A stretch of 62,906 bases of DNA, counting the filler, from Platydemus manokwari (taxonomy: Eukaryota), in the NCBI GenBank assembly GCA_037951405.1. It is 6 parts of 6 records of this genome, joined end to end, with 100 filler letters (N's around TTAATTAATTAA, not from the genome) between each part and the next. Parts side by side here need not be neighbours in the genome. Positions count along the whole stretch, not along the records: positions 44,009 to 53,984 come from JBBMOY011182767.1; 5 more parts are not named here. One strand, 5' to 3'. Positions 11,811-60,380 of the stretch are shown piece after piece; the stretch's first letter is position 1, and each line of letters opens with the position of its first letter. The translations under genes were made by a program, and so were the position numbers. The notes under the pieces are model-generated. The model saw only the letters and a program-made list of their open reading frames with translations. It had not been told where the DNA came from and searched no databases.

Positions 11811-12353
11811 TGTGTTATTAAACATAACTGTAATTATCTAACTACATTTATAATTATAAAGAAATAAATTTAAAAACTCAAATAATTATATACGATTGCC
11901 GTGATTAGAATAGGAACTTGGTTTTGAAGCTATTTTGTCACTATTAGATATCTTAAAAAGGATACTTTTATAGAATTAAAGAATAAATCAAACATAGCAA
12001 TTGTATACATGAATTTATTTTATAAAATTGTCTCATGCACGAAATTTCATTATAACAAAAATCCTTTTTCTTGACTTAAGCCGTAAATTCTTATTCTAAA
12101 AGATTTTAAAAATAAATCGTTTGAAAACTTTTACAAAATAATAATATTAATAGTTAAAAATTAAAGGCAGTTTTAAAGACATTGAAGATTTTTTAAAATA
12201 ATATTGTTCTAAATCATTCTGACGTTATTTTATTAATATTTCTCTATTTATATTTAAAAATAATTTAGACCAATAGTATTATAAAGAAAAGAAATTCTTT
12301 TATTTATTGTTTTTTTTTAAATTGATAATTAATCGTATTATAAAAAGCATATC

Positions 12354-14081
12354 ATGCAAAATATATCAATGGAACATAATAGAGAATCAATTGACATTTA
12401 TAATGAAAAAATTAAGCTAAGCGAGACACGAAATAAATTCGAAACATCTTCTCAGCACATTATGTATTTAGTCAATAATGAAATTAAAGTGTCTGACGAA
12501 ACTGAACAAATAATGACAGAAGAAAATATTGTAAATCAAAATAAAGAAACTGCGCAAAATAAAAGAATTATTTATTCTTATAAAACTAAATTGAAAGCCA
12601 TTGAAATGTATCAAGAAGGATTTACGTTGCACGAAATTGCGAATAAATTTAAAACATCTTTCAATAATGTCTGGTATTGGGTAAATACTAAAAATAAGAT
12701 ATTAGAAAACGCGTTTAATAAATGTAATCAGTTATCATCAGAAGAAATAAAAAAGTTAGAAAATATTAAAAATGAAAAGGTAGATGTCTTACAAAGGAAA
12801 ACACGTATTTCTACCGAGACTAAATTGAAAGCTATTGAAATGTTTCAAAAAGGAATTGATCTTAAAGTTATAGCCGAAACGTTAAAAACAGGTTACAAGC
12901 AAATTTATTATTTAGTCCATAGAGAAAGTAAGATATTAGAAAACGCGTTTAAGAAATGTGATCAGTTATCACCAGAAGAAATGAAAAGGTTAGAAAATAT
13001 TAAAAATGGAAACCGAGATGTCTTCCAAAAAAAACCACGTATTTCCGCCGAGACTAAATTGAAAGCTATTAAAATGTATCAAGAGGGTATCTCATTGAAA
13101 GCGATTGGAAATATTTTGCAAGTCTCCTTCAACCAAGTTAGGTATTTGGTCAATAATAAAAATAAAATATTAGAAAAATTTCTTAAAAGAAGAGATCAGA
13201 TATCACCGGACGAAATGAAAAGGTTAGAAAATATTAAAAATGAAAACCAAAATGTCTTCCAAAAGAAAACACGTATTTCTGACGAGACTAAATTGAAAGC
13301 TGTTGAAATGTATCAAGAAGGATTTACGTTGCAAGAAGTTGCTAATAAATTTGAAACGTCTTACAACTATGTCTGGTGTTGGGTCAATAATAAAAATAAG
13401 ATTTTAGAAAATTTTGTTAAAAGCAGTGATCAGATATCACTGGACGAAATGAAAAGGTTAGAAAATATTAAAAATGGAAACCAAAATCTCTCCCAAAAGA
13501 AAACACGTATTTCTGACGAGACTAAATTGAAAGCTGTTGAAATGTTTCAAGAGGGTATCTCATTGAAAGCGATTGCAGATAATTTTCAAACATCCTTCAA
13601 CCACGTTTGGTATTGGGTAGAAAACAGAAGTAAAATATTTGAAAAAGTTGCTAAAAATAATGATCAGATCTCACTTGAAGAATTGAAAAGATTAGAAAAT
13701 GTTGTAAATGGAAACAGGCGTGAGTTACAAACGAAAAAGTGCAAAGTCTCTACAGATAATAAATTTAATTTTATTGAAATGGATGGATTAGCTTACCAAT
13801 CAAAACCCTGTCAGACAGATTATAAATTATTAGAAAAAGACATAAAACACAATGATCAGATATCATTAAAGGATGGATCAGAAAGTTTCGATTTACCTGT
13901 AAATTTATTGAAATATGAAAGTGTATGGTTTGATGAAATGTTAGTACAAAAGGAAAATGAAACGAAAGGAAATTGTAATAGAAAAAATACTAAGAGAAAA
14001 ATAACTGACACTGAAAATAAAAATGAATTCAAGAAAATACGACTTGAATTTCCTATAAATATAAAATTGGAAGAAATGTAA
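12354..14081 (+). CDS. Intronless 575-aa protein with five tandem 78-aa repeats, each containing a CENP-B-N/psq-like helix-turn-helix (paralog B, intact)
   Basis: Open 1728-bp frame in AT-rich DNA. Repeat starts at 12801, 13035, 13269 and 13503 (period 234 bp), plus one upstream copy. The motif (Y/I)SxETKLKAIEMYQEGxxLxxIAxxFxTSxxxVxxWVxNKxKI resembles the N-terminal HTH of pogo/Tigger/CENP-B proteins. No DDE domain is visible. Confidence 0.9.
   Translation: MQNISMEHNRESIDIYNEKIKLSETRNKFETSSQHIMYLVNNEIKVSDETEQIMTEENIVNQNKETAQNKRIIYSYKTKLKAIEMYQEGFTLHEIANKFKTSFNNVWYWVNTKNKILENAFNKCNQLSSEEIKKLENIKNEKVDVLQRKTRISTETKLKAIEMFQKGIDLKVIAETLKTGYKQIYYLVHRESKILENAFKKCDQLSPEEMKRLENIKNGNRDVFQKKPRISAETKLKAIKMYQEGISLKAIGNILQVSFNQVRYLVNNKNKILEKFLKRRDQISPDEMKRLENIKNENQNVFQKKTRISDETKLKAVEMYQEGFTLQEVANKFETSYNYVWCWVNNKNKILENFVKSSDQISLDEMKRLENIKNGNQNLSQKKTRISDETKLKAVEMFQEGISLKAIADNFQTSFNHVWYWVENRSKIFEKVAKNNDQISLEELKRLENVVNGNRRELQTKKCKVSTDNKFNFIEMDGLAYQSKPCQTDYKLLEKDIKHNDQISLKDGSESFDLPVNLLKYESVWFDEMLVQKENETKGNCNRKNTKRKITDTENKNEFKKIRLEFPINIKLEEM
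12567..13736 (+). repeat. Five tandem 234-bp coding repeats
   Basis: Blocks such as GAGACTAAATTGAAAGCT and GAAAAGGTTAGAAAATATTAAAAATG recur at an exact 234-bp period. Confidence 0.95.
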
Positions 14082-36886: not shown

Positions 36887-39800
36887 ATGGATAAATTTAA
36901 GTTTAATTTTTCATCACTCAACGAGAAGTTACACAAGAAAAACAAATTTACCGAATTTCTTTCATATTTAGAAAAAGTATCTGGTGTTCCGCGAACAAAG
37001 ATTTTTCTAGGTTGTTCATATTTGATTTATAATTATTTTTGAGATACTTTTCCAAAATTTTCATATGAAATTGTTGAATGATAAATGTTTTCATTCAAGG
37101 CTTAGCATCAGTTCTCGGTTTATATATAATATTTGGTCCATATGCTGTTAATTTTGTCAATCTAATTGGATTCTTTTATCCAGCATATGAATCGTAAGAT
37201 GATTTTTTATGATGAATTTTTTCTCAACCCACCTCAATAGATTAAATATGATTGAATTGAGGCCGAAAATGGAAGATATCAAATGGATGACATATTGGGC
37301 GATTTATGCTTATTGGTTTGTTTTAGAATCATTATTGCAAAGTGTTTTGTTTGCCATCCCGTTTTATTCTGTTTTGAAGGTTTGTTTATATTAATAATTT
37401 TTATAACAAAAATAATTATTTTTTATAAAATAATAATATATAACAGTGATTATAATGATTATATATAATTATATAATTCTTAATAACTTTATATTTTTGA
37501 TTATAATGGGAAATAAATTGGAGGATTTATGTGGCTAATAAATGATAGGATGGAGAGTACGATATTAGCATAGAAGCTATGAGTAACGTTTAAGGTTTGA
37601 AAGTTTCCATTTTCATCACAAATATCAGCACCATTTAACCTGATTAAGTCGTCATACTAAGTTAGAAGTCTGTAAGGAGAATCAATCAGTGACAACAGAT
37701 TCTTCCAAACGTTATTGTAGGTCGCCGAAATGTGTACATAGGGGATGGAATCCTTTCTGTTAAATAGCGAGCCCTTTTATAAGGACTTCCATTTTCAAAT
37801 TTATTTTTATCTGCCACAGACATATGGATAATATTATGTAGAGACTTAACCGTGGGAAAATACGTTAAAACTCGAATATGGAGTAGAGTTTTCATATTGA
37901 AAGGAAAAGTAAATAGATGTTTTATAAACAATAATAATAGTAAAAACATCGGCTGTTTCCATCAAAATTTATTGCTTCAGAAATCACACGCGTTTCCTCG
38001 AATATTTAAACAAATCTAAGATTTATCTGACTTTTCTTTCTTCTTGTTTTTAAGATCTTTTTAGCCATTCAATTCTTCGAGGATTTGGATGGCCCTGGAA
38101 ATCAAGAACCGCTTGATGTGGGCTAAAAAATTCAAAAATTCTGTGACGACCTTCATAACGATCTCCGTTCTTTATCTTGTGTGGTTCCTTCTTCACTAAA
38201 ACTTCTTCTGAAACCTCTTGTTTTATCATCGAATTTCCTTAAGTTTATGGCTACTGATTTTAGTTGGTTTTTCCATTTATTCGATGATCTGGGTGTGATG
38301 GCTTGATTCGTTTAATCGTAACCCATGCATATTAATTCGTCGACCAAAACAATATTTCAAAAGGAGGATTGAGCTTTGATATGCCACATTGATGATAAGT
38401 TATATCCGATGTATTAATTTATCTCAAGTCTGTTTCTCTGATGCTGGTGTTGTTACCACTATATCTAATCATTATTTCGGCTAAGCCATTAGATTTGTGT
38501 TGGTAGGGAAGGCGAAATCTTGCATTATTCGAAATCGTATCGTTAATTCTTTCATTTCCCTTCCCTCGTAGACTACCACGACCAGTGAGCATTGATTTTG
38601 AAGCACCAAACATATAGATCAAATTATCGATGATAGAATTGGAAGTAATGATCTCGTCTTGTCGAATAAGTGGCACTAAGCTCACTTACTTACTGAATCT
38701 ATCTACAATAACCAACAGATATTTGGTTTTAGTCATAAATTCCTCAAAGTGCGCAACATTTGTTCTGCAGAACCAAAATCTTCCCTTGAAATCATAACTT
38801 CTTTAGCCCGTTCATTGGATATCTTCCGTTTAGCACAAATATTACAATTCCGTACTTCGTATTCGATGCTTCGTGGCATATTTTCCCAGAAGTACATCTT
38901 TTGCATGAAATCGACCAATTCCTTATTAATAATATGGAACAACTCCAAATGAAGGTATCTCATTAGTTTCTGCGACTGGACCTCTAGCACAACAATTCGC
39001 CTCTTTCCATTCTCATTATACACCACCATATCTTCAAACAATTCGTATTTTCTTGACCACTGAATTGAATTCTCTTTCAGTTGAATGTTCTTTGAATGGA
39101 GCCAACGTCTTTTTATTAAATCTTCATTATTTCGTCATTATTTGCAATTGAATGTTCGACAACATAAAATAAATAGACTTTTTAGATTGTCATATTTAGC
39201 TTAGTGCTGAACAAAATGCTTCGCCTGCTCTTGAGAGTCCATCCGCATTTCAGAATCAGATTAATCCCTTCTGATATTGAAGTTCCAAATTGAATCCGGA
39301 TAAGTATGCAAACCATTTCTGAAATTGAGGGCTAATCAATTTGTTAGTTTTCTTCATATAAATCAATGTCTTGTGATCATTGCGAGTTACAAATTTCTTT
39401 CCCAGTAGATAATGCTTAAAATGCATACTTAACTTTTGGATTGCCAAAAGCACCCTCCTCGTGACGCAATAACATTTCATGACTGTGAAGAGTTCTAGAA
39501 GCATAGGCAATTACTTTCTCTTTTCCAGTGTCATCCAATAGGATTAGAACGTCGCCAATCTCTCTGAAACTAGCGTCGATATCTAAAATAATCTCTTTGC
39601 TTGGATCCGGAAAGGCCTAAATCAGAGTTGTGCATAATTGTCCCTTTAGGTTTCGAAGAATTTCCGCATTCTCTGTACTCCACTTTAATATCTTGTCACT
39701 TCCAATCATCATCGCATATAACGGAGCCATAATTTTGTGTGAAATCTTTTATAAATCGTCTGTAATAATTGCATAATTCTAAGAACGATCTCAACCGAAT

Positions 39801-42706
39801 TTAATTGTTTTCTTAATCTTTTTTATTAGTTTCTATACCTTCTGCACTAATCGTATGAACCAGGAAATTCAATTTTCTTTTTCCAAAAGCATATTTTTAT
39901 GGATTGATTTTCGAACTTCATGATTTAATCGACCTGAAAACCTTTTTCGAGTTTCTCATTGTGTTCTTCACCTTTTCTTCCATACAATTAAATATTGCCC
40001 AGATAAACAAGAATGTCTATAAATCAAATCCTTAAATATCGTATTCATTAGACTCTGAAACGTTGCTGAAGTGATACATAATCGACTAAGTAGTCTGCTT
40101 AAACAGAAAAGCCCAGTTCTAGTGCTGAATGCCGTTTTCAACTTAGAATCTTCCTCAATTTAGACCTCATAATGTCCTTGCCCTAAATCAACGGTAGAGA
40201 AAACTATCGGGTCATACATCGAGTCCAATAACGTTTGGATATCAGGTACCTAAATAGAAAACTTCTCAGTCTGTTCACTTAATTCTCGGAAGTCTAAACA
40301 CGTTCTGATCGATCCACCTTTCTTAGGAATAACACCCAAATAAGCGTTGCAAGGTGTTATGACATTACTTTCAAGAATTTTTTTATTATTTATTGAATTT
40401 TGGTTTCTAAATTTATTGGCTGCCTTCTGGGATTTGCGCAATAGGTTCTCTTTTGTACGGATCTCACGCTTCACATCTGTGTGTCCCAAATCGAACCGAG
40501 ACGCCATAAAAATTGAGTCATTTGATTTTATACACCTATTCAATGAAATATCATTCTCATCAGCAATACTCTTCAGTGCCATTTCGATTCTGTCTTGGTC
40601 GGTGTATTTCTTTCCCACATCCTTGGCATCAATTGATTCTATCTCTGGAAGGAATATTCCACAAGTCTTAATCATATCATTTCCCTTAATAAATCTTGAT
40701 AAAATTTGTTACACTATAATGATAACTTTTACTAGAACTTTATTGTTCCAGACTATTAAGATCCTTATTCTCCCTAGACATGATTTGTGTTGAATTGGAG
40801 AATACACCAGCCAATCGAACATCAGAATTTTGAATCTAGGGCTCTCCAATGCGCCACCAATTGCTCTCATTCATTACTGTTATTGATGCACAGAAATCCC
40901 ATAACATTTCAATATGTGTACAGTTGCACTCAATTTTACTCCATTGTGTACCATCTGCTTTCTCATGGATCAGTGAGTGCTTCCTCTTTCTCTTGCAGTC
41001 TTTCTTTACTTCTATTCTATCTCTGATATGTGTCATATTGACGCAATGCTTTCATTAATATTGTTGGTCTCGTATTGTTTGGAGATTCCCTGTTATTAAC
41101 TGGTGCACGATGATATACCAAAATCTATTTTCTGCACGATTGGACTTGGATTTTTGAACGAAGTCCCTTTCTGAAACATCTTTCTTGGGTCACTTTGAAA
41201 TAGAGAGTGAACATATGTCTTCTTAATGGCGTTTAAAGGCCTCGTCGGAGTTAACTTTTCAAATTTTACAGCTAGATCTCTTCTTTTATCGTCGAACATT
41301 GCAGGGTCGAGCGTAAAAGACTACTTCAATTTTTTGATCTTTAGACCTTGCAGAATAAATAGTCTTGAAATCTTTTCAAGAGTGTTTTTCTTGTCAAACA
41401 CCTCTGTCATTAGTTATTTTACTCGAAGTTCATAACTTTGGTACTTTTCATCCGGTCTTTGTCGCATTGCTGCCAAATTCTGAACCTTGTCGTACACTTT
41501 TGACATGTGAGAAACTGCTTCTTTGAAACTGCTGATCTCTTGTCACAGTTGTTTGGCGTCATCTGTCACAGCATGTCAAATTCAAATGATAATTCCATTT
41601 GATTAAATGTGGTAAAATCTTTGGTTGTCTGAAAGTATTTTTCAGCATCTTGGATTGATGCATCGAAGAACGATGGCTTCGGAATCAATAACTCCTGAGA
41701 TTTTTTGGGGGGGGCAAAGATTTTCTGCCTCTCTTCCCTATTGGCTATTTGGTAGCCTGTAATAACATCGGTTGTTTCCATAAAAATTTATTGTTTTAAA
41801 AATCACACGCGTTTTCTAGAATATTTAAAAAATCTAAGATTTATCTAACTTAATTATTAATATCTATTAAAATAACTGCAATAATAAATTATTATAATTA
41901 TAACTAAGTGATAATATAATCCGCAATATGGATGCGTTGTCATGTATGAAACAATAAATTTATGTCTGAATTTAATAAAACCATCTCTTATGATTTACAA
42001 AACTTCTAATTTTATGAGTCGTGTATTATAATTTGATTGCTGTTTCTTGGACATTTATATTGTTCTGATATTCATAACTAATAAATATTTTTTTAATAAT
42101 ATTCGCCTTGTACATATTCTTATATCAAATAAATCGAGCACTTCTTCACTTCAGAGATAACACAATTACAAGGTTTAACTGATTTTATCCTACGTAACAT
42201 AAAATTTGTCATTATTAATAAATTACATACATTTGTAATTAATTATTTTCAATTATAATCTATTTTAAATATTTGATAACACTTGACAAAGATGCAGTGT
42301 GATCATAATTATTTTTTACTTACCTAATAAATATTTATTCTTGAAATAAATAAGCACTTTTTATAATATTTGAGATATTCTTGTTTTATCTGCTGATTTT
42401 TTAAGTGAATAGATAAAAAAATATCTATTAAAATATAACATTCCGACTCTTGTGTTACATCATGCCATTTTAGTGTGCCTTCTTGATATGCTGTATGATG
42501 TCAAATTCTTACAATGGATCCCTTATAATATACAAACACATTATTCGACCATTGATTATTCAAAACCAAAAAAATATCGATCGAGCTGTGTTACATTTGA
42601 CTACAGAAGCTAAAGATTTTCTAACTAAAGGTTAAAGTTCATTTCCATTATTTATATATCACGTAATCAATTCATATATTTTGTATTTTTAGTGAGTAGT
42701 GACTGA
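36887..42706 (+). CDS. REEP5: Receptor expression-enhancing protein 5/6 (DP1/Yop1, TB2_DP1_HVA22 family), 175 aa
   Basis: Exons 36887-37010, 37100-37193, 37241-37379, 42474-42630 and 42693-42706, all GT-AG and frame-consistent: ...LEKVSGVPRTKIFL|G...NLIGFFYPAYES|LNMIE...EDIKWMTYWAIY...PFYSVLK|CAFLICCM...NGSLIIYKHIIRP... Confidence 0.93.
37944..41849 (-). mobile_element. Decayed Ty3/Gypsy retrotransposon in REEP5 intron 3, antisense to the host gene
   Basis: On the minus strand, in order: gag (from 41781), protease region, RT (PKKGGSIRTCLDFREL, FSTVDLGQGH, KTAFST, YLGNI for YLDD), RNase H (DIDAS, VIAYAS, HFKHYLLGKKF..RNDHK) and integrase (YFWENM...CNIC, PYQHKSNGLAE). Many stops and frameshifts. 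Confidence 0.93.
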
Positions 42707-44008: not shown

Positions 44009-44910
44009 TGAAATAAAATCAATTATGCCAAGAACGTATATATATTCAATAGCTATTAAATAAAATAATTTTCAAATAATTGTTTTACGTAAAATAATAA
44101 TTTTCAAAAATTCAAATCAAATATTAAAATCAATAAAATATAAAAACAGAGTTTTACTTACATTTAATCAAATTTAAATTTCGATAGACATTTGAATTGA
44201 ATTTGTTTTGAAGCTTGAATTTTGATTTGAAATGGGATTCTTCTTAGATCTACGTGTCTGGATATTCGCTCTATTTTTTTCATCTTCCAGATGTTCAATG
44301 ATTTTTTCCAATTCCTTCTTGTCTCTTTTCATTCGTTCTCGTTGTTTCTTTAATTCACTTTGTTGTTCAAAACTTTGTTGGGCCTTTTCTTCTCCCGATC
44401 ACTCTGTTGGGAATCCAAGATATAAATAAAATAAACAAACAATCCAAAATATAAATAAAATAAACAAATATAAAAACCTAATTGCCCACGTACTTCCACG
44501 CCACCGAAAAATACAATAATAATAAAAATTATAATAAAATGATGCATCACCATGGTGAATTAATACGTCACCACGGTAACAAAAATAGTAATAATATTTA
44601 AAATACACATCACCATGGTGATTTAATATATCACCATGGCAATAGAAAAATAAATTATAAAATCATTAAAAAATCCCAGAAATTAATAATCAACTCCCAC
44701 GTACGCCCACAGGGAAAATTGCTATAAAATAGTGGGCGACGTAGGTGAGTTGCCACAAAAATTGTTCATCATTGATTCGCCAAAATTGGGAATCGCTACA
44801 AAAAATTTCTTATCAAGAGCAATCATTCAACTTCTCAAATAAATTGGGATATTCATTCGTATCTTTCTCCTCAAAAAAGTTTAGTATTGCAATCGAAATC
44901 ATTCGCAACG

Positions 44911-45086
44911 TCGGATCAATTCGTTATAGGATAAGCTCGTTATTGGATTGCCATCCGCCGAATCTCTAGATCATTCGCATCATTGGATAAACTCGTGATC
45001 GGATCAATTCGTCATCAGATAAATTCGTAATCAGATAAACTCGTTATCGGATCAATTCGTTATCGGATAAGTTCGTTATTGGATTT
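44911..45086. repeat. 16-bp tandem repeat array (consensus ~CGGATAAATTCGTTAT), about 10 copies in two blocks
   Basis: (G/A)GAT cores at 44913, 44929, 44945, then 44985, 45001, 45017, 45033, 45049, 45065 and 45081. Confidence 0.9.
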
Positions 45087-45144
45087 CAACTTTCACAGCG
45101 CCTTCCATTATCAAATGCAATCGGTAATTTTTTCAATTAACTAC

Positions 45145-45342
45145 ATGAGTATCGTACAAAGTCGCAAGAATTTGTACTGATATTCATTCATAAAATCATA
45201 TAGCGGTACAAAGGCAGAAAGCATTTGCACCGAGCCATCAGTACGCTGTAAAGCCGCAAGGATTTGCAGACGTCACCTTTAATTAATTAATCTTCTTTAG
45301 TTTATCGTCCGAAGTAAGGCGGCACTTAGTTCCTTACGTCGG
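45145..45342 (+). other. Cluster of related stem-loops (candidate structured RNA or ssDNA element)
   Basis: Three homologous hairpins (45145-45187, 45203-45235, 45243-45273) with covarying pairs, plus a fourth hairpin at 45309-45342. Confidence 0.6.
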
Positions 45343-46063
45343 TTTGTTTTAAACTCTTCAGGACACAACACTGCTTTCTGTCAAATTGTTGCATGATACA
45401 TTCGTTAATTTTTATTATAATAAACGTATTGTATTAAGATTTTGTTATCATTTATATCATTATTATATTTAACAGTCCCTGAATAATTACACGCAACCTA
45501 TTTACTGATTAAAGTCGGATTATTGGTGGAATCATCATTATTCCGGTTCTAATCATCACTTAATAATGCACAGATAATTCATCGAGTTCTGCTAGTTGAA
45601 TTATCACTTAGAATCACTCACCAGATACTACTTAGCACAGGCTAGTAGGATTCCATCAATAATAGCGATTCATAAAAGATATAATAGCCCTTTTCATATA
45701 AAACCGTTTCATCTTGAAAGAACTTCCCACAATAGAATAATGATTAATTCAACAGAAAATATTATTATTCGGCTAACCTATTTTGGAATTTCAAAGCTAT
45801 TAATCAACTTCGATTAAGCTGAGTAACCGCGTTTCAGAGCTATTGAACAAATCCGATTGAAAATCACACTTGTTCGGATTATTAGTGAGGTGTAAAACTA
45901 ACGTTGAATTAGTCTCATTCGACAAAAACTATACAAGGAAATACTGGACATACAGATTCAAATTACTTTACGACTAAAAGTAGCCACCAATAAACTAGAA
46001 ACTATTTACCAGAAAAAAACTCCTCTAAAGGAAAGAAATATCGAACTGCATCCTAGTCAAATA

Positions 46064-47050
46064 TGTTGTGTTTGGGGCTTGTCAATCTTTTTTGTTTTAA
46101 TTCTTATCAGTCTCAATAATATTATAACTGTTACGGATCATTGTTGTCTTGATCGGTCCAAATGAGTCCTAATCAAGGCCAAGGTACAAACTATAGAACC
46201 TTATCCTATCTATTTTCACATCGCAATTAATACTATGTGAAGAGAGTATGATTGGCAACAATGATCCAATTTTATTATAAACAATCAGCCTCAATTTAAA
46301 TTGCCCTATATAATTTATCTATCGACAAAATGTCAAAACAACTATTAACTACAGTAAGTTTTATTACACCGACATAAAAATTATGTAATAAGCAAGCAAT
46401 TGATTTTAATATTACAATACGATTACAATACTGTATACACGTAAACGACCACCCTACAAATTCAGGAATAAGCTACGGTTGCAAACTTCAACTCAAGAAG
46501 CTGAACCAGTTATCTCAAGACGTTTTTGAGATACAACTCAATAACGTGACAATATACGATACGTTATATAGTACATATAATGATTTTGCAGTATAAATTT
46601 AACTCACTGGTACTGGAATTTAAACGGGAAATGTAATGGCTGCTGATGGTTACTAAACTAACTCGAATATTGAAGGCTTTATGGCTTATATGATCATAAA
46701 TTTTTCAATGGGACTAATGCGCTTACTCCTCTAGTGGTTTCAAATAATTAATGGGCGAGTTGTGAAGTTCTCAACTCCTATATATACCTTTTTTATGTCG
46801 GCGCTTATAATAATCCTGATTATAATATATTTCGCCACATTATTATAAATATCCCGCATTTTATTCATGATGTCACTATTTATTCTCTGAAGATTTATCT
46901 TATTTCAACTATTATATTTATTATTATACATATAGAATATAATTTTAAATAGATATCATTTTTTTAATATTAACAATATAATTACTACGTAATAAATTAT
47001 TTATTCCCGAATTTGAGGAATTTACATTAGAAATAAAAATTATCGCTACA
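46064..47050. repeat. Dispersed ~1-kb repeat (possible LTR; TG...CA ends), copy 2
   Basis: Homologous to 28461-29506. Begins TGTTGTG and ends CGCTACA; no target-site duplication seen. Confidence 0.6.
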
Positions 47051-50000
47051 TTGCAATATTCCATTCCACCATAAACAAATGTTCCAATTTATCCCTACAG
47101 TAGACAAAATTGGACATAAAATTAATGTCAATAATTGCTACATTAAAACCAGACGAGGATTGTTACACAGAAACCGACTAATTGATACATTCAATTAGCT
47201 TCGAAAAATTAATACAATATATACATAAAGTTGTCATTATAGATTACTACAATATACATAAAAAATTGTCATTGTCAATAATGTCAAGGTTCACATTTGA
47301 ATTTGCGGTTGGATTTGTTAAAACCCCAACAAATATATTTTATTTATTTCTGCTCCGTGAAGAGATCTTAATATTATTTATTGGAAAAGAGTAGTAAGAA
47401 CATTTATTATTTGTTGATAGTCTTGAAAGGCTAAATTACTTATTTAAATTAACCTTTTAAAGTTAACATTATCCAAATGATTCTCTTATATACTTTTTGG
47501 TATTATTGAAATTATTCACTTAGATAAATTTTGATATTCTCACTCACAAAATCGATTCATATACTGACATATTTCTAGATTGAATCAAGTTCAACTAGAG
47601 ATTAAAATCAAAAACTAAACGCTAAAAATCACAATACAAAATAAATCTAGTGGTTATGGTGCATTAGACCCAACCACCAATAAAATAATTGCGAGGACTC
47701 TTACTGGCATAACCATAAGAACTTGAATAAATTAACGGTCTATTATAAGAGTCAAACAATAGAAAATGAACCCCTATAATCACCTAGTTATTTGTTCAAA
47801 TTATTATAATCTACGCATTGACATTCTATTCAAAGATTGTATAACTTGTTAATAAAAATTATAATTTCATTAATTTTATAATTATTTACTAGCTCAATTG
47901 GTATCGTTCATAATTTTATTTACATACACCTGTGGAGATTGTAACTAAATAAATCAATAAAAGCTCAATCGTGTTGGGTTGTGACATTAAAATAAAGAAA
48001 ATTATTTAAATATCTTAATTTAAATATCTTTTATTATTTACGATTAATTATAGACACGTCTCGAAAAACTCATAATAACCCCAACAAATTAAATAAATTC
48101 TGTACGCATCATTTTTTGGTTAGGTCTTAATGTACTGTATTGTAGGTGGATAAATAACGCTGTAAGATCTACAAGTGGTTTTTTATTGAATCAATCTCAA
48201 CTACTATCAAAATTGTACACTTTTTAAAATAAATTGTTTTAAATGCGCGTGTATTCAAATCGAAATAGGCACTACAAACGTTGAAGGAGATAATAAAGAT
48301 AGTATGAATATACCCTTTCTTTCATATACACACTATCAGTGCTATTCACACTTCAACAGATTTGTGCGAGACCGGTCTGCGCAGAATTTTCTTCTTCATT
48401 GGTGGTCATGTATGTCAGTTTTTCTATTTTAATAATGTAAATAGAATTTTTATCCAATTTTAACATTTTTCGCCTTCATAAAATTTCAGATTTTTATATT
48501 AAACTTTTTTAATGTTTGAAAAATGACATGATTATAGAAAAAAATATCAGTTATTGAGAGTATGAAGACTAATGTAAAATCTTTCAAGAAGAATGGGTTA
48601 ATTTTATTGATAATTACCGAAATTTATAGTGCGACTGGTGATAATTTAATTTAAAAACCACAAAGTAAGCAATTTACGACGGAATTATGAAACAAATCAT
48701 TTTCACTTTTCAATTCGATTTCCACTTAATTCAAAGTTACCAACCGAAAATTAATGGAGTTCTTAATTTTATTTAGTACGTAAAATAACACAATAAACGA
48801 AGAAAGTCTTTATTACTTAGAAATATTACTGGTGCCAAACTTTCATGAGATTGTAAGTGAATTCATTTAAAATACTTTGATCAAAATTGATCAAAATTTT
48901 AAATTCAAGTAACACAAAATTGCATCACATCGGAAAATTGAGTATCGCATTTGTGAAATTAGTAAACATATTGCAAATAATTCGATGTGCGATTTGCAAA
49001 ACTGTAATAAATTTAGTTTAGCTCTTTTTGAATGAAAAGGTATTCTGTATGCTCAACAATTGGACAGTTTTATACGGTGATATTATGTTAAAAATTTTCG
49101 ATCTATTAACTGATATTAATGTTAAAAATGTGCCTGATCAAATAATGAACATATTTGAATAACCTTGTAACAAATTTAAGCGTTGAGATAGACGGAAGCA
49201 TTGCGACGACGAAGTAAAACTGAAACAACGATCCTAGAATTCCACATCTGATCATCTTATTGCATAATCTTTTCAATAAGAAAATATAAGGACGGTTTTT
49301 ATACAGGTTGTAAATTTAATCACAAGGAATGTCAAACACAAAATCAATTCAAAACTTTTTAGATTATCCACGAATGAAGAAAGAATTGGATGAATAATCT
49401 GCAATTGGCCTTATATCATGTTGATAATGAACATCAACTTATAACGTGTTGAGCCACTTTGTCAATCTGCTCAATTCTATCTTAATATTTACAAAATAAA
49501 AAGGTAAAAATACTCAGAATCAGTAAACGGGATTTAGTTTTCTGAGTGAATGCTCCTTCAGATAAGTTAGAACATATAAAATATATAATTTGACTTTATA
49601 AAGAAAAGATGTTTTTTTGTAATTGTCAAAATCTTGAGAATAAAACCTTTAATCATGAAAAATTCAAACATAATTAATACAAAGAAGTAAAAATAGTAGA
49701 AAATAAAAAGATATTGGAATAATGTAGAGAAAATTTCAAACATAGATTTGCAGATTTGAAAAGCTTAAAATCTACAACCGCAAATTTTGTAAAACTCCAT
49801 ATTTATGACATTATTGAAGATGGATTTCCAATTTCTGAAACAATATTTATTGGAATAAGGGCTGTATAAAAAAGGGACATTGCAATTGTTGCAAAACTTT
49901 TCTGCTATGAATTATTTTGAAAACCCGTGACAGAACAAAAATAACAATATTTTTTAATAAACTTCCTTGTCGTCCATTTTCGATATTTGGTGCAACATAT

Positions 50001-50320
50001 CACTGTGAATCTCTGAACTTCACAGAATTTCAGTGAACAGATTTAACTATTTTTTAAAATTAACAAAAGAATGATATTAGTTTTTTACTTTTCCTAAATA
50101 AATATAATTTTATTATATTTGAATAAAATTACCAAAACTTTTCATAAGTATAATTTTTATATGTTCCTCATTGTGGCTCGTGTAAAAAAGCAATTATATT
50201 AAATACTTTGATTATGTGCTTCCAACCTCTCACTAATGTTTTGGGCATTCGTTAAATTTAAAATATTGAGCTTTACTTGAGAATTATTGATTTCAATTGT
50301 TAAAAAAAATACAAACAAAC

Positions 50321-52443
50321 TCTCTGATATCAATATCTAAGTTTTCAAATTTCTTAAATCGGTTCACCATATCATTTGTGCTTGAAATAATCATCGGAGA
50401 CATCTGTAAATGAACGTTATGATTCAGAATATTATCAATTTCAAATCACTTGACTTTTTTCAATTTTCGAGGAGTAAATGTTGGAGTGATTAAAACTCGA
50501 ACTCTTTCCCAATCATTTCCATTTAGCTGTGCTACATTTAGCTTCAATAAATTGGAAAATCCAAAATCCTGAATAATTAATATTTAACTAATCGTCAATA
50601 AATAAATCAATGAACATGAAAACTATTTATAATTATCTTGAAATGATATTTTTAATAAAATTTTTGAAACAATCGCTTACAGGTCTGTCGATAAATGATT
50701 TTGCATCTTTTACAAATATTTGTTTCAAAATAGTTTCATCAGAAACAACCAACACTGGTTTTCGTCCAACATAAGCCCTAAACAAAATTAAAAGAAATCG
50801 GTATAAAATATATTTAAGGAAATGAATTAAGAATATTAATGTTATCCCAGCTCGTAATCGATTTAAATTGTACAAGTTTAAAAACTTTATCATTTTCTCA
50901 AATAATTACTATCAGTTTCAAGGATATATAAAATACTTTTCATAATTTTAATATAATTATTCTGCAAAATCAACTTCAAGATAATAAGTTGCGTAATCTC
51001 TGTACTCCACAAGTTTTATCTCAATTATTTTCCATTCAACCAACAATCTGTCAAACAATTTTTAAAATGTCTTTCACAAATATATTATATTAGATTAATT
51101 TGATGAGTTGAATTTCTTTAATTTTGACATAATTGGCTTAAAAAGGCTATTATTTGTTAATATTGTTGTATGTGTAGTTTATAATTAATCAATTTATATT
51201 AATAGGCAAGTTCATTAAACCATAGAAGACCGTCATCTTTCTCTAAGCCAATTTAACACCGAAGATTGACTGTATGGCCACAATAATTGACATTGTTTCG
51301 TTCACTCTAAGTACAAGTGAATCTATTAATTGGAGTACATTTTGTAAAACTTGTTTGATAATATTATAAGGTTATCTATTCTGGCCTAAAATAGAGCTCT
51401 AAATATAGTTAGTCATAAATATAGTTATGAATATTAAAATGAAAATGGCATTTATATTCATATTTCCTTAGATATTAATAATAGCTAACATTCAATATTA
51501 ATAATAAAGTATATAAAATAATTTCTTGAATATTTTCACGAATATCGTCGTTATTGGAAACTAGATTTTATCAAATATGCGGAATAACTTTTGAGAAAAT
51601 TGACATTTTTCCGAAGATAATTAATAATAATCAAAATGATGAGCCTTCGACGTATTGGATATAAAAATTAATTTTTTGAAGAGTGGTGGAATTTGTTGAT
51701 AATCTATATTATATTTAAAATATTGAAAAATTTCTCTTTCCATTTATGATTGTTTTAATGGAATATGATAAACATTTTTGAAGAACCAATAATATTTTTA
51801 CAATAATTCCCCAATATTTTACTGACTCATTAAATACTATAAAAAGAACTTTTCTAAAGATAGACATTTGAATTAAATTACATTGAAGTGCCGATTTAAG
51901 GTATGGTAATTAAATTTTCCTCAGAAGAAAGGCATTGATTATAAACAATCCTAGATAGGGGAAATATTGAAATTTTATTAAGTGTGTTACTATTTCAAGT
52001 TTCTTGCACTGAGGAGTTAACTAATTTTATCCTTTCAAATTGAAAATAAATTGTTGAAATTCAGTAAATTTTCGTCATTATTTCAAAAATACCAGATTAT
52101 TTGCTGTAAGTTCGAAATATGCAAAAAACTATTATGTATGAAACAAGAATTATATCAAACAATAATTACGGATATATGTGGCCATATTTCTTTTGATATT
52201 TCATATCACAATTATGAAATCCATATTTGATATAATCAAATAAATTTCCAAATAATGGCCATGGTTTTGGTCCTTTTAGTCCAAGATTTTTTCCAAAATC
52301 AAAAGTCCAAGTCATCCATCTAAATGAGATTGTGGTTTATTATTGATTAAAGACATGAGGAATTACTTGTAAATGATGAAGGATAAAATAAAAAACAAGA
52401 TTGTGCAATATGCTAACGATGATGTTAAGTAAGAGAAAATCAT
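50321..52443 (-). CDS. Cytochrome P450 (clan 3, CYP3A/CYP6/CYP9-like), first five exons; remainder not found in the contig
   Basis: Exons 52443-52367, 52319-52170, 50777-50681, 50568-50455 and 50403-50321, GT-AG and frame-consistent: N-terminal TM anchor, GLKGPKPWPLFGN, KKYG, GRKPVLVVSD..ILKQIFVKD..SFIDRP, and the C-helix W..VR.LITPTFT..KLKKM. Confidence 0.93.
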
Positions 52444-53984
52444 TTCGATTGACAACTGTGGTTTCGTTCTGATTCTCTAATATATATTATCGACAAATTA
52501 AAACAAAATGATCAATTAAAACTATTGGATTCTATAATAAAAATATTTGATGTAATCAACAAAATGTGACAAAATATCTGAAATTGAAATTTATTTATAA
52601 ATATTTATTTTATAATTTCCATTGTCATCATTTGTGTACTAAATCGCTTCAATGATTCAAAATTTGAAGTTATAATACAGTACTCGATATCACCTTAATA
52701 TATAATTATATAAACATTCATAATTCTGAATACTTTTATAGTGAATCGCGACTGACTTAGTCAAAAGAGAAAATATATTTTGAGAAATATCTTATTGCTT
52801 CCGAAAAGTGAATTGAGCAAGGGTTTCGATTTTCTATAAATATATATAATGAAATAGCAGGATTATGACACCAGAAAATTGAGCACAACGGAATAAAATT
52901 ATACATTGGTATTGCATGATTATTTATTAAAACAATATCTGTAGAATGATGGAGAGAGTCGGAAATAATTCGAATATCACAATTATAAACCTCGACAAAA
53001 GGCTCACATAGATATACCCACCAACAGATAATATTAATTATCTCAAAAGCAAATCATAAAGCTCCAAATCAAAACGTTTTGATTGCACATCAATTTTAGA
53101 TTTGTTTACATTCGCAAGAGAGATCTGATGTCTCAAGGCATCCATGAAGTAAGAGATTAATAATAATTTGGTAGACAAATTCATATTTTCTAACGACTTT
53201 AGTAAATGAAAAGTAAAATTTTTAACATGAAACAAACACACATAAACCAGATAATTAAAAATGTCGACTCTCGGTAAGAGCTGCCAGTCTTTCATGTTTG
53301 CTCACCTTTCGCATATTCATTACACGATCTTTTGGTTTCAAAACCCACTTTTGGTCTTACTTTTGTTTGTGATTTATTTAATGATCGTTACATTGATTAT
53401 AGTTGCTTTGTCATATGGACCGTGTAATTTGATCATTATAATAATAAAAATAATAATAATCTTCATAAAAATAAATATTAGTTTTATAATTGTTAATTAA
53501 TAAGTATAATTATTATTTTAGCATCATAAACTTGTAATTTATTTATTCATTCACCAAAGTCATCTGATTCATGCAAAAAATGAATTTATAAGCCATACTG
53601 ATATGATATGATAAAAAAATAGAATGGTCGAAAACAGGAAATGTAATGATATCAGAAAGTTTCATAAAACATTTTAACGAATATTGATTATATTAACAAG
53701 ATGAAGAAAAAATTGATGAAAAAACTTTAATATTTATTTTAATTTTTATAAAAAAAAACTGTTGGAAATTTTTACTGAAATATCGGTAACAGGCTCAACA
53801 TAAACTTCTTTAAAATCAACAACGTACAATATATATTAAAATATTGCATAATTTCACAAGCTGGTGATTGATAAAAATTATTTTCGTTGATTTTTATAAT
53901 AATACCAACCCAATTGAGTCGACAAAATATTAAATAAATGTTAACATTTTTGCAATCAATCTGTAAATCATATATTTACTGTCT

Positions 53985-59289: not shown

Positions 59290-60380
59290 TCTACAGCTGC
59301 TTCACTATCTCTTCTGCTACTTCTTTATCCACTCGTATCCAAAAATATGATTCTTTGTTTTCTTCTCCTAGATTTTCTGACATCACTATCATTTTGGTTG
59401 GGTCTGCATTTTTGTTCTTCATCACATATAAGTTTGTATCGGTTATCATTACAACTTTGTATGTTCCCTTGAATGTTCTTTGCAACTTTAGTATCAGTCT
59501 CTTTAGATTCACGTGCATGACCTAGGTTTACTGATTGTGATAATCTTTATATAGGCTTTTCTTAATCTGTCTTTCATTATTGTGACACATTCCGGTTCCT
59601 CCGTAAGTTGTGATATGGCTGATAAATATGTTAAGTTTACAGGTAGAAATATTTCTCTTAGGTACAAGAAATAAAACGGTGAATATGTTGTAACTTCATT
59701 TAAAGCTACGTTATATGCAAATATTCATGGTTAAATATATTCGTCCCAATCATTTAGTTGATAGCTTACAAAGTTGGATAACGTATTTTACAACATTTGA
59801 TTAAATCTTTCTACAAGTCAATCAGTTTGAGGATGATATTGTGATGTGTATAACTTCTAAATTTTAGACAAATCCGTTATCTCCTGGATAACATTTCTTA
59901 GAAAATCCTTACCTCTAACAGTTAGTAATTTGCTAGGATCTCAGTATTTAAATATTATCTGTTCTACTAGTAATTTAGCTAATGTCTGTGCTTTATGATC
60001 CTCTTTTACAAATGCCTCCTCTATCCTTGTGAAATAGTTACAAAAAATCGATTATGCACTTATTTTCTTTTAATGTCATGCGCAGCGGTCCCATAATGTC
60101 CATTGGCCACAATTCCTTAGGGGTCATTGATGGTGGTATTGGTTCATCCAGAATCTTTATTTTTTCTCTCCACGTTTCTACTAGTTTCACAAAATTAATG
60201 TTGCTGCACCATCGTTCTATATTTTTGATTATATTTACCCATTAAAACTCATGTGTTAATGTTCCGAATGTTTGCTTTTTAGATAGATGTTCCCCTAATG
60301 TTCCATCATGATATGTCAATAGCAACTGCTGATCCATTTCTTTTGGAACCAATACATTTAACCCGTATTGATAATTTATG
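59290..60380 (-). mobile_element. Ty3/Gypsy integrase relic
   Basis: VLVPKEM...LLTYHDGTLGEH (HHCC region), WPMDIMGPL, AQTLAKLLVEQII, TSQYHPQTD*LVERFNQML, DWDEYI and FAYN...TTYSPFYFLY; heavily interrupted. Confidence 0.9.

Follow-up and report, generated by a model that had tools for sequence, protein, structure and literature searches.

The LTR and other features of the window

The window, meaning the whole stretch of Platydemus manokwari DNA that was analysed (62,906 nucleotides), contains a solo-like copy of the long terminal repeat (LTR) of a Ty3/gypsy family, 1,254 bp long, at 44405–45658 on the plus strand, within the part that comes from JBBMOY011182767.1 (window positions 44009–53984). 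The boundaries of this LTR are common to its copies, and it ends in TG...CA with an imperfect terminal inverted repeat of about 11 bp. A search of the genome with a 301-nt query yielded 327 candidates and 40 scored matches, and exact patterns of the LTR ends yielded 110 right ends and 73 left ends; among the ends listed (100 of the 110 right ends and the 73 left ends), nearly all flanks were unique. A 4-bp target-site duplication was exact in 14 of 34 two-ended copies and had one mismatch in 7 of them, compared to 1.7 and 8.9%, respectively, for mismatched flank pairs, and duplication lengths of 3, 5 and 6 bp did not fit these 34 copies. The window copy has no target-site duplication (one of four bases matches), and a coiled-coil-like reading frame at 44174–44398 on the minus strand adjoins its left end, which together suggest that this copy is a recombinant or has a rearranged junction.

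As read from the sequence, a CACCATGGTG-type palindrome occurs three to four times at 44548–44640; these palindromes are present in other copies of the LTR, lie in the presumed U3 and are possibly enhancer repeats. The putative promoter is a TATA-like box at 44723–44729 (plus strand) flanked by CCCAC...GTGGG; such a box was present in 10 of 15 copies checked, 256–452 nt (measured from an anchor motif) 5′ of the first of the hairpins described below. A 16-bp tandem repeat of 6.2 copies at 44985–45084 (plus strand) lies within that part of the presumed R which varies in length, and AATAAA at 45419–45424 (plus strand), followed by a GT/T-rich tract, is the predicted polyadenylation signal. Of 15 copies checked, 9 had an exact AATAAA 242–277 nt 3′ of hairpin 1, and the others had a variant or no such signal. 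From the AATAAA at 45419 and the TATA-like box at 44723, we infer that the hairpins are located in R; the U3/R/U5 borders and expression of the LTR are likewise predicted.

Contigs of sequencing run X1 stacked over the element to a depth of up to about 5,500, compared to 8–20 in the flanks, a ratio that does not represent copy number. Raised depth was also seen over a second dispersed repeat at 46098–46958, which is common to L013 and L010 at about 70% identity. Elsewhere in the window, exon-like fragments at 50633–52336 (minus strand), one of which was scanned without a Pfam match, resemble a cytochrome P450 N-terminus, and a 582-aa frame at 12333–14081 (plus strand) contains about five 78-aa helix-turn-helix repeats. 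Decayed Ty3/gypsy reverse transcriptase (RT) and integrase remnants at 38733–40708 and 59545–60361 (both minus strand) lie in other parts of the window than the hairpin-bearing LTR.

The hairpin array and its conservation

Three hairpins lie in tandem on the plus strand of the LTR. Hairpin 1 (45145–45187) consists of a lower stem of 9 bp, a bulge, a stem of 7 bp, a G.A mismatch, 2 bp and a GCAA loop; hairpin 2 (45204–45232) has the same core, with a GAAA loop enlarged by one A in the window copy, and hairpin 3 (45243–45273) has this core with CC/GG and GCAA. The MFE and centroid folds agreed on exactly three stems at these positions (−41 kcal/mol), with a z of −4.61, and none of 200 shuffles folded as well. 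A covariance model of the motif, for which hairpins 1 and 3 were part of the training set, had matches at E<1e-4 in the 62.9-kb window only at the three hairpin sites. Therefore, the three tandem homologous hairpins proposed in the first-pass annotation are real. Its description of hairpin 2 required correction, because the stem said to be fully paired contains an A.C mismatch (45208/45228), the lower GC/GC stem is absent from the predicted fold, and the purine-rich AGAAA pentaloop is a one-base insertion into what is, in the family, a GNRA tetraloop. This insertion is absent from most copies: among 39 BLAST-found aligned copies, one other had an insertion at this loop (L053, two bases), and the extra base at 45216 was absent from the 5 sequencing-run contigs listed there.

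A further conserved hairpin of another shape (CCGA/TCGG, GTAAGG/CCTTAC), read from the sequence, is located 3′ of the array at 45309–45342 (plus strand); it is kept in the 39 BLAST-found copies and was used as an anchor in a comparison of copies. By eye, this hairpin includes a TAAGGCGG-like stretch, and similar words were seen 5′ of AATAAA in the sister-family LTRs L194, L160, L187 and L195, which are without the triple hairpin.

Across copies, the core of the hairpins was AAAG-NN-GNRA-NN-R-UUU, the stems covaried, and the loops sampled were GCAA, GAAA, GUAA, GGAA and GAGA. Within the 39 BLAST-found copies, the loop was GCAA or GAAA in hairpin 1 and GAAA or GGAA in hairpin 2, and the base opposite the G alternated between A and G. 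In a set of 68, 65 and 72 copies of hairpins 1, 2 and 3, which is biased in that it combines BLAST-found with pattern-found loci, GNRA loops were present in 57/68, 58/65 and 60/72 copies, the A-U tract pairs were kept in 64–72 copies, and the mismatch was G.A or G.G in 63/68, 60/65 and 64/72 copies. It was G.G in 38/68, 6/65 and 19/72 copies, respectively, so that the G-A opposition is not invariant, contrary to what had been supposed. Rows removed before these counts were four core matches that were false or shifted, two hairpins made hybrid by internal deletions, and two matches to the anchor that were without the motif (L145 and L162). Many of the departures from the core are probably the C-to-T and G-to-A changes expected from CpG decay.

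Alignment A1, with 62 rows taken from 110 passing of 166 distinct, was motif-filtered, and loci L069–L109 were found by the motif pattern; therefore, the apparent invariance is inflated. In the 62 selected hairpins, 94.1% of cells were paired compared to 83.5% in shuffled controls, and the covariation score was 0.346 compared to 0.141, with none of 500 shuffles as good in either respect, although much of this signal arises between the three hairpin types. Pairs changed on both sides showed no excess, with 4 compared to 3.4 in shuffles (172 of 500).

The inheritance of variants was evaluated on a tree of the downstream LTR of 72 copies, in which several long branches have a non-LTR downstream part. 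With the core defined post hoc, after the data had been seen, 7 of 13 structure-compatible core variants clustered by clade compared to 0 of 12 structure-breaking variants (Fisher p 0.005), the latter being scattered on the tree. The same test over all columns was not significant (9/19 compatible compared to 3/19 breaking, p 0.08) because three breaking outer-stem changes in hairpin 2 are inherited by clades, and a simpler shared-versus-private test gave p 0.07. The clade-inherited variants were a change from U-A to C-G in the apical pair of hairpin 1, GAAA and GUAA loops, G.A/G.G, and C-G/U.G below the tract. In divergent subfamilies, the lower stems of hairpin 1 have a different sequence and the pairing is kept.

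A z of −2 or lower was found for 12 of 20 representatives, compared to 0/20 upstream and 1/19 downstream control segments, and the most distant subfamily folded weakly. The plus strand had the lower z in 16 of the 20 representatives, and the minus strand was better in 4. We consider it very probable that the hairpin array is a selected RNA structure. The earlier suggestion that structure rather than sequence is conserved agrees with the retention of GNRA loops and with the finding that the clade-inherited core changes are all structure-compatible, and the preference given to the plus strand as RNA agrees with its z values and with the inheritance of G.U pairs.

The spacing of hairpins 2 and 3 was 39 nt in 58 of 62 copies and 38–42 nt in the remainder, and that of hairpins 1 and 2 was mostly 52–58 nt. 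Between two subfamily sets, the identity was 0.86 in the cores compared to 0.40 in the mid-linker. The distance from the hairpins to the TATA-like box varied by about 200 nt, whereas the distances to AATAAA and to the LTR end varied little.

The array, which had not been recognised beforehand as a known family, corresponds to no family of Rfam 15, which gave no match in the window at the gathering threshold. The best match over the hairpins was RAGATH-22 on the minus strand (16.4 bits compared to a threshold of 120.3; E 2.8), and nothing meaningful was found there at E<=10. The c-di-GMP riboswitch, SRP helix 8 and the sarcin-ricin loop were rejected as candidates, having no Rfam match and different shapes, as was the MS2 operator, which differs in shape.

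The element and its relatives

Past the CA end of the LTR, five loci (L138, L139, L200, L239 and L249) share a leader and gag. After a 4-nt spacer at the LTR junction, the leader begins with a primer site complementary to the 3′ end of the genome's tRNA-Trp(CCA), which is intact or near-intact in L249 and L239 and decayed in L138, L139 and L200; the same tRNA-Trp primer site is present 5′ of gag in sister families. On the 3′ LTR side, L135 and L098 have in common about 200 nt of sequence 5′ of the LTR, the last bases of which form a purine tract, and in L243, remnants of protease/RT, RNase H and integrase lie in gypsy order on the same strand 5′ of the hairpin LTR. Because gag follows the LTR and the pol domains precede it, the plus strand is the sense strand. 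The 5′ and 3′ junctions were found on separate contigs of the assembly, which has about 2 million contigs.

We are nearly certain, therefore, that the hairpin region is the LTR of a Ty3/gypsy family, with the array between the TATA box and AATAAA, and the membership in a mobile element that had been raised beforehand was borne out. A reading as a Ginger-type or MITE DNA transposon was abandoned once the LTR junctions were found, the inverted repeat being only about 11 bp long and the primer site, purine tract and gag/pol junctions being present. An apparent primer site in L061 was also rejected, as it belongs to the part of another element's gag that encodes the zinc knuckles, where no more than the final ~66 nt of the LTR (641–706 of L061) are inserted, and a pattern requiring TGG within 4 nt gave four matches, none of which was a primer site.

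The relatives of this gag in the genome are GAG-ENV-POL elements, with the order gag, a long unknown region, a PF24664 fusion glycoprotein, protease, RT, RNase H and integrase. The env gene is present on several branches of these relatives, with an env remnant in the close relative L256, and no contig was seen that carries both env and the hairpin LTR. The hairpin family is grouped in the gag tree with weak support, and its gag contains three CCHC-type knuckles that score below the Pfam cut-off. A search for homologs of the gag fragment among longer proteins found none at E<=1e-10, which is weak evidence. The domain order in these gag relatives is that of the GAG-ENV-POL Ty3/gypsy "errantiviruses" with an HSV/gB-type env, reported for elements of Nematoda, Bryozoa and Platyhelminthes (PMC13524379), from which the hairpin family differs in that env was not found on a contig with its LTR. 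The terms "secondary structure" and "stem loop" had no match in the main text of that report, and the primer-site 12-mer was not found in those of its supplements that were searched.

The region between gag and env (L139 4628–6035 and equivalents) is long and contains a conserved domain with 54 matches in the genome; it contains Lys/Arg-rich motifs, basic and AT-hook-like, and has no Pfam match. The region after integrase (L185/L186; L243 3100–4100; L098, minus strand, upstream of the LTR) contains a Thr/Ser-rich stretch and a hydrophobic, transmembrane-like segment, with a basic tail in one element, and by eye looks like a membrane protein additional to the fusion glycoprotein.

The number of hairpins ranged from one to three per subfamily, hairpin 3 being the copy kept in subfamilies with only one or two. 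Two hairpins were found in the distant relatives L096, L137 and L150. The first hairpin of L137 (2567–2583), L150 and L136 has three pairs and GAU rather than two pairs and GNRA, and in this subfamily neither the mismatch nor the A-U tract is lost and the linker is of unchanged length. The related LTR L142 has one hairpin, and none was detected in the related LTRs L145 and L201; therefore, three hairpins are not required. The motif model had no match in 12 loci of gag-related sister families. In 7 of the 12, the sequence 5′ of the primer site is about 1 kb long or longer, and one of the 12 (L201) is the related LTR, apparently deleted over the array. An exact tandem-motif pattern, through which unrelated repeat families were covered, gave 155 matches in the genome compared to 24 for the control, and among the 100 of the 155 that were listed were unrelated tandem repeats without the hairpin fold. 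Exact tandem-motif patterns had no matches in collections of viral contigs and metagenome contigs.

The class of feature is a familiar one, a structured cis-element in a retroelement LTR. No description of the triple-hairpin motif was found in the literature searched (titles and the starts of abstracts), and the motif appears, as far as searched, to be undescribed, whereas the LTR family may already stand in Repbase, Dfam or bioRxiv supplements.

Candidate roles of the array

The reading that we tentatively prefer, from sequence considerations, is that the array may serve in genome selection as a docking site, specific to this family, for a Gag-side protein of the element itself. If transcribed from the TATA box, the RNA would carry the array twice: in its 5′ leader, about 390–510 nt before the LTR end and the primer site that adjoins it in 5′ copies, and at its 3′ end. 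Each hairpin, with a purine-purine mismatch two pairs under a stable tetraloop, would provide one binding site, and two or three sites at fixed spacing could allow cooperative loading of nucleocapsid (NC), or of a basic region located after NC in the polyprotein, which would mark the RNA for assembly. The A-U tract, the G.A/G.G exchange, the free second base of the loop, the tandem copies and the fixed spacing are what a repeated RNA recognition surface would be expected to have, and the confinement of the motif to one family within the host fits an element-encoded partner better than a shared host factor. However, it counts against such docking that AATAAA is not strict in divergent subfamilies, and because R is on every LTR-driven transcript, R alone cannot single out the genomic RNA. 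In GNRA loops, moreover, the G is stacked, and such loops are not known to be typical NC ligands. Precedents in favour of the docking reading are the paired GACG hairpins of gammaretroviral leaders (PMC5874298) and the first NC site of HIV-1, which is described as a labile helix of a U-tract and purines (PMC7395439).

Several retroviral systems are comparable in part. The HIV-1 and HIV-2 TAR and similar structures are R hairpins present at both RNA ends, and the HIV-2 TAR is a tandem of similar stems; the hairpins described here would likewise lie in R and at both ends. In contrast, TAR begins at the cap, whereas the distance from the TATA box is long and variable here (256–452 nt from the anchor, with a predicted start site), and the hairpins have neither a pyrimidine bulge nor a hexaloop. 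So variable a promoter distance speaks against a TAR-like role. The gammaretroviral SL-C and SL-D are located downstream of the primer site. As paired GACG hairpins, they are also tandem homologous tetraloop hairpins in retroelement 5′ RNA, and they are conserved and tied to dimerisation and packaging (PMC5874298), but they kiss via C-G pairs, which the GNRA loops cannot do in that way, and the Platydemus hairpins contain a G.R mismatch and are inside the LTR.

A doubtful alternative is that the array is a response element for an accessory RNA-binding protein (Rev/Rex/Rec-like) that the element encodes between gag and env, acting in export or translation of unspliced RNA. A G.A/G.G interchange is read by arginine-rich peptides in stem IIB of the HIV RRE, Rex- and Rec-type elements are located in R or U3R of the LTR, and RxRE/RcRE are LTR-borne. 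The array has in common with HIV-1 RRE stem IIB and RxRE/RcRE the purine-purine G.A/G.G in a helix and the repeated sites for oligomeric loading, and this interchange, the location in the LTR, the Lys/Arg-rich motifs of the inter-gag-env region, the family specificity and the fixed distance to the poly(A) signal would all fit. Unlike RRE stem IIB, each hairpin has a single 1x1 mismatch beneath a GNRA loop and no identified Rev-like partner; by eye, the basic motifs resemble AT-hooks or nuclear signals, the region that contains them has no Pfam match, and no such Ty3/gypsy protein was found in the literature searched. It is improbable that the array is a modular RNA operator of an invertebrate env-bearing Ty3/gypsy lineage, made of one to three G.R-mismatch/GNRA hairpins at a fixed 39-nt period and cognate to a Rev/Rex-like protein encoded between gag and env; if true, this would be a retrotransposon lineage with its own protein-RNA regulatory circuit, like complex retroviruses.

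It is also unlikely that the array acts through a host factor in export, translation, stability or poly(A)-site choice, in the manner of the PCE or the HIV poly(A) hairpin. Such roles are established for stem-loops of R and RU5 (PMC2657110), and stem-loops have been linked to residual conservation in long R regions (PMC3601003). The PCE of spleen necrosis virus and others likewise consists of redundant stem-loops in 5′ untranslated retroviral RNA, a likeness of stem-loop layout alone, and acts via host RNA helicase A (PMC2657110), whereas the Platydemus motif is family-specific. The position of the array, about 150–270 nt 5′ of AATAAA, would suit a host factor, but the hairpins do not occlude AATAAA and sister families in the same host are without the motif.

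That the array is RNA architecture only, with GNRA-receptor docking leading to compaction, dimerisation or R-R strand transfer and with no protein-specific site, is quite improbable. The loops obey the GNRA rule, the spacing is fixed, and tandem C-G pairs, a classic GYRA receptor, are present in hairpin 3; however, the identity of the loop shifts between subfamilies (GCAA/GAAA/GUAA) with no visible matching change of receptor, and the nearly fixed A-U tract and G.R mismatch are more like a recognition surface.

It is very improbable that the array acts at the DNA level, whether as a paired TCF/Sox-like site (WWCAAAG) or through mini-hairpins formed by DNA of the integrated LTR or of intermediates of reverse transcription. 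In favour of this, hairpins 1 and 2 start with TACAAAG, the DNA mini-hairpin GC-GAAA-GC is very stable, and the minus strand folded better in 4/20 representatives. Against it, the plus strand had the lower z in the other 16, a C>T change before AAAG (9 hairpin-1 copies, clade-clustered, p 0.002) kills the site and keeps a U.G pair, T precedes AAAG in most hairpin-3 copies, and compensatory lower stems are unneeded in dsDNA. The ssDNA hairpins that the first-pass annotation had offered as an alternative are likewise disfavoured, as clades inherit G.U and GNRA-compatible changes and the minus strand would have pyrimidine loops and mismatches.

Among Ty3/gypsy elements, cis-acting RNA signals are ill defined, and even the packaging sequences of yeast Ty3 are said to be "not precisely defined" (PMC11381356). 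Here, the cis-element belongs to a repeat that is decaying, in a single genome, and structured R regions are well known in retroviruses. The LTR subfamilies of P. manokwari form a fossil record that yields a compact 16-nt structural rule, with fixed spacing and natural gain and loss of copies. Therefore, the means by which an element of this kind recognises its RNA could be tested using short RNAs together with a small protein domain.
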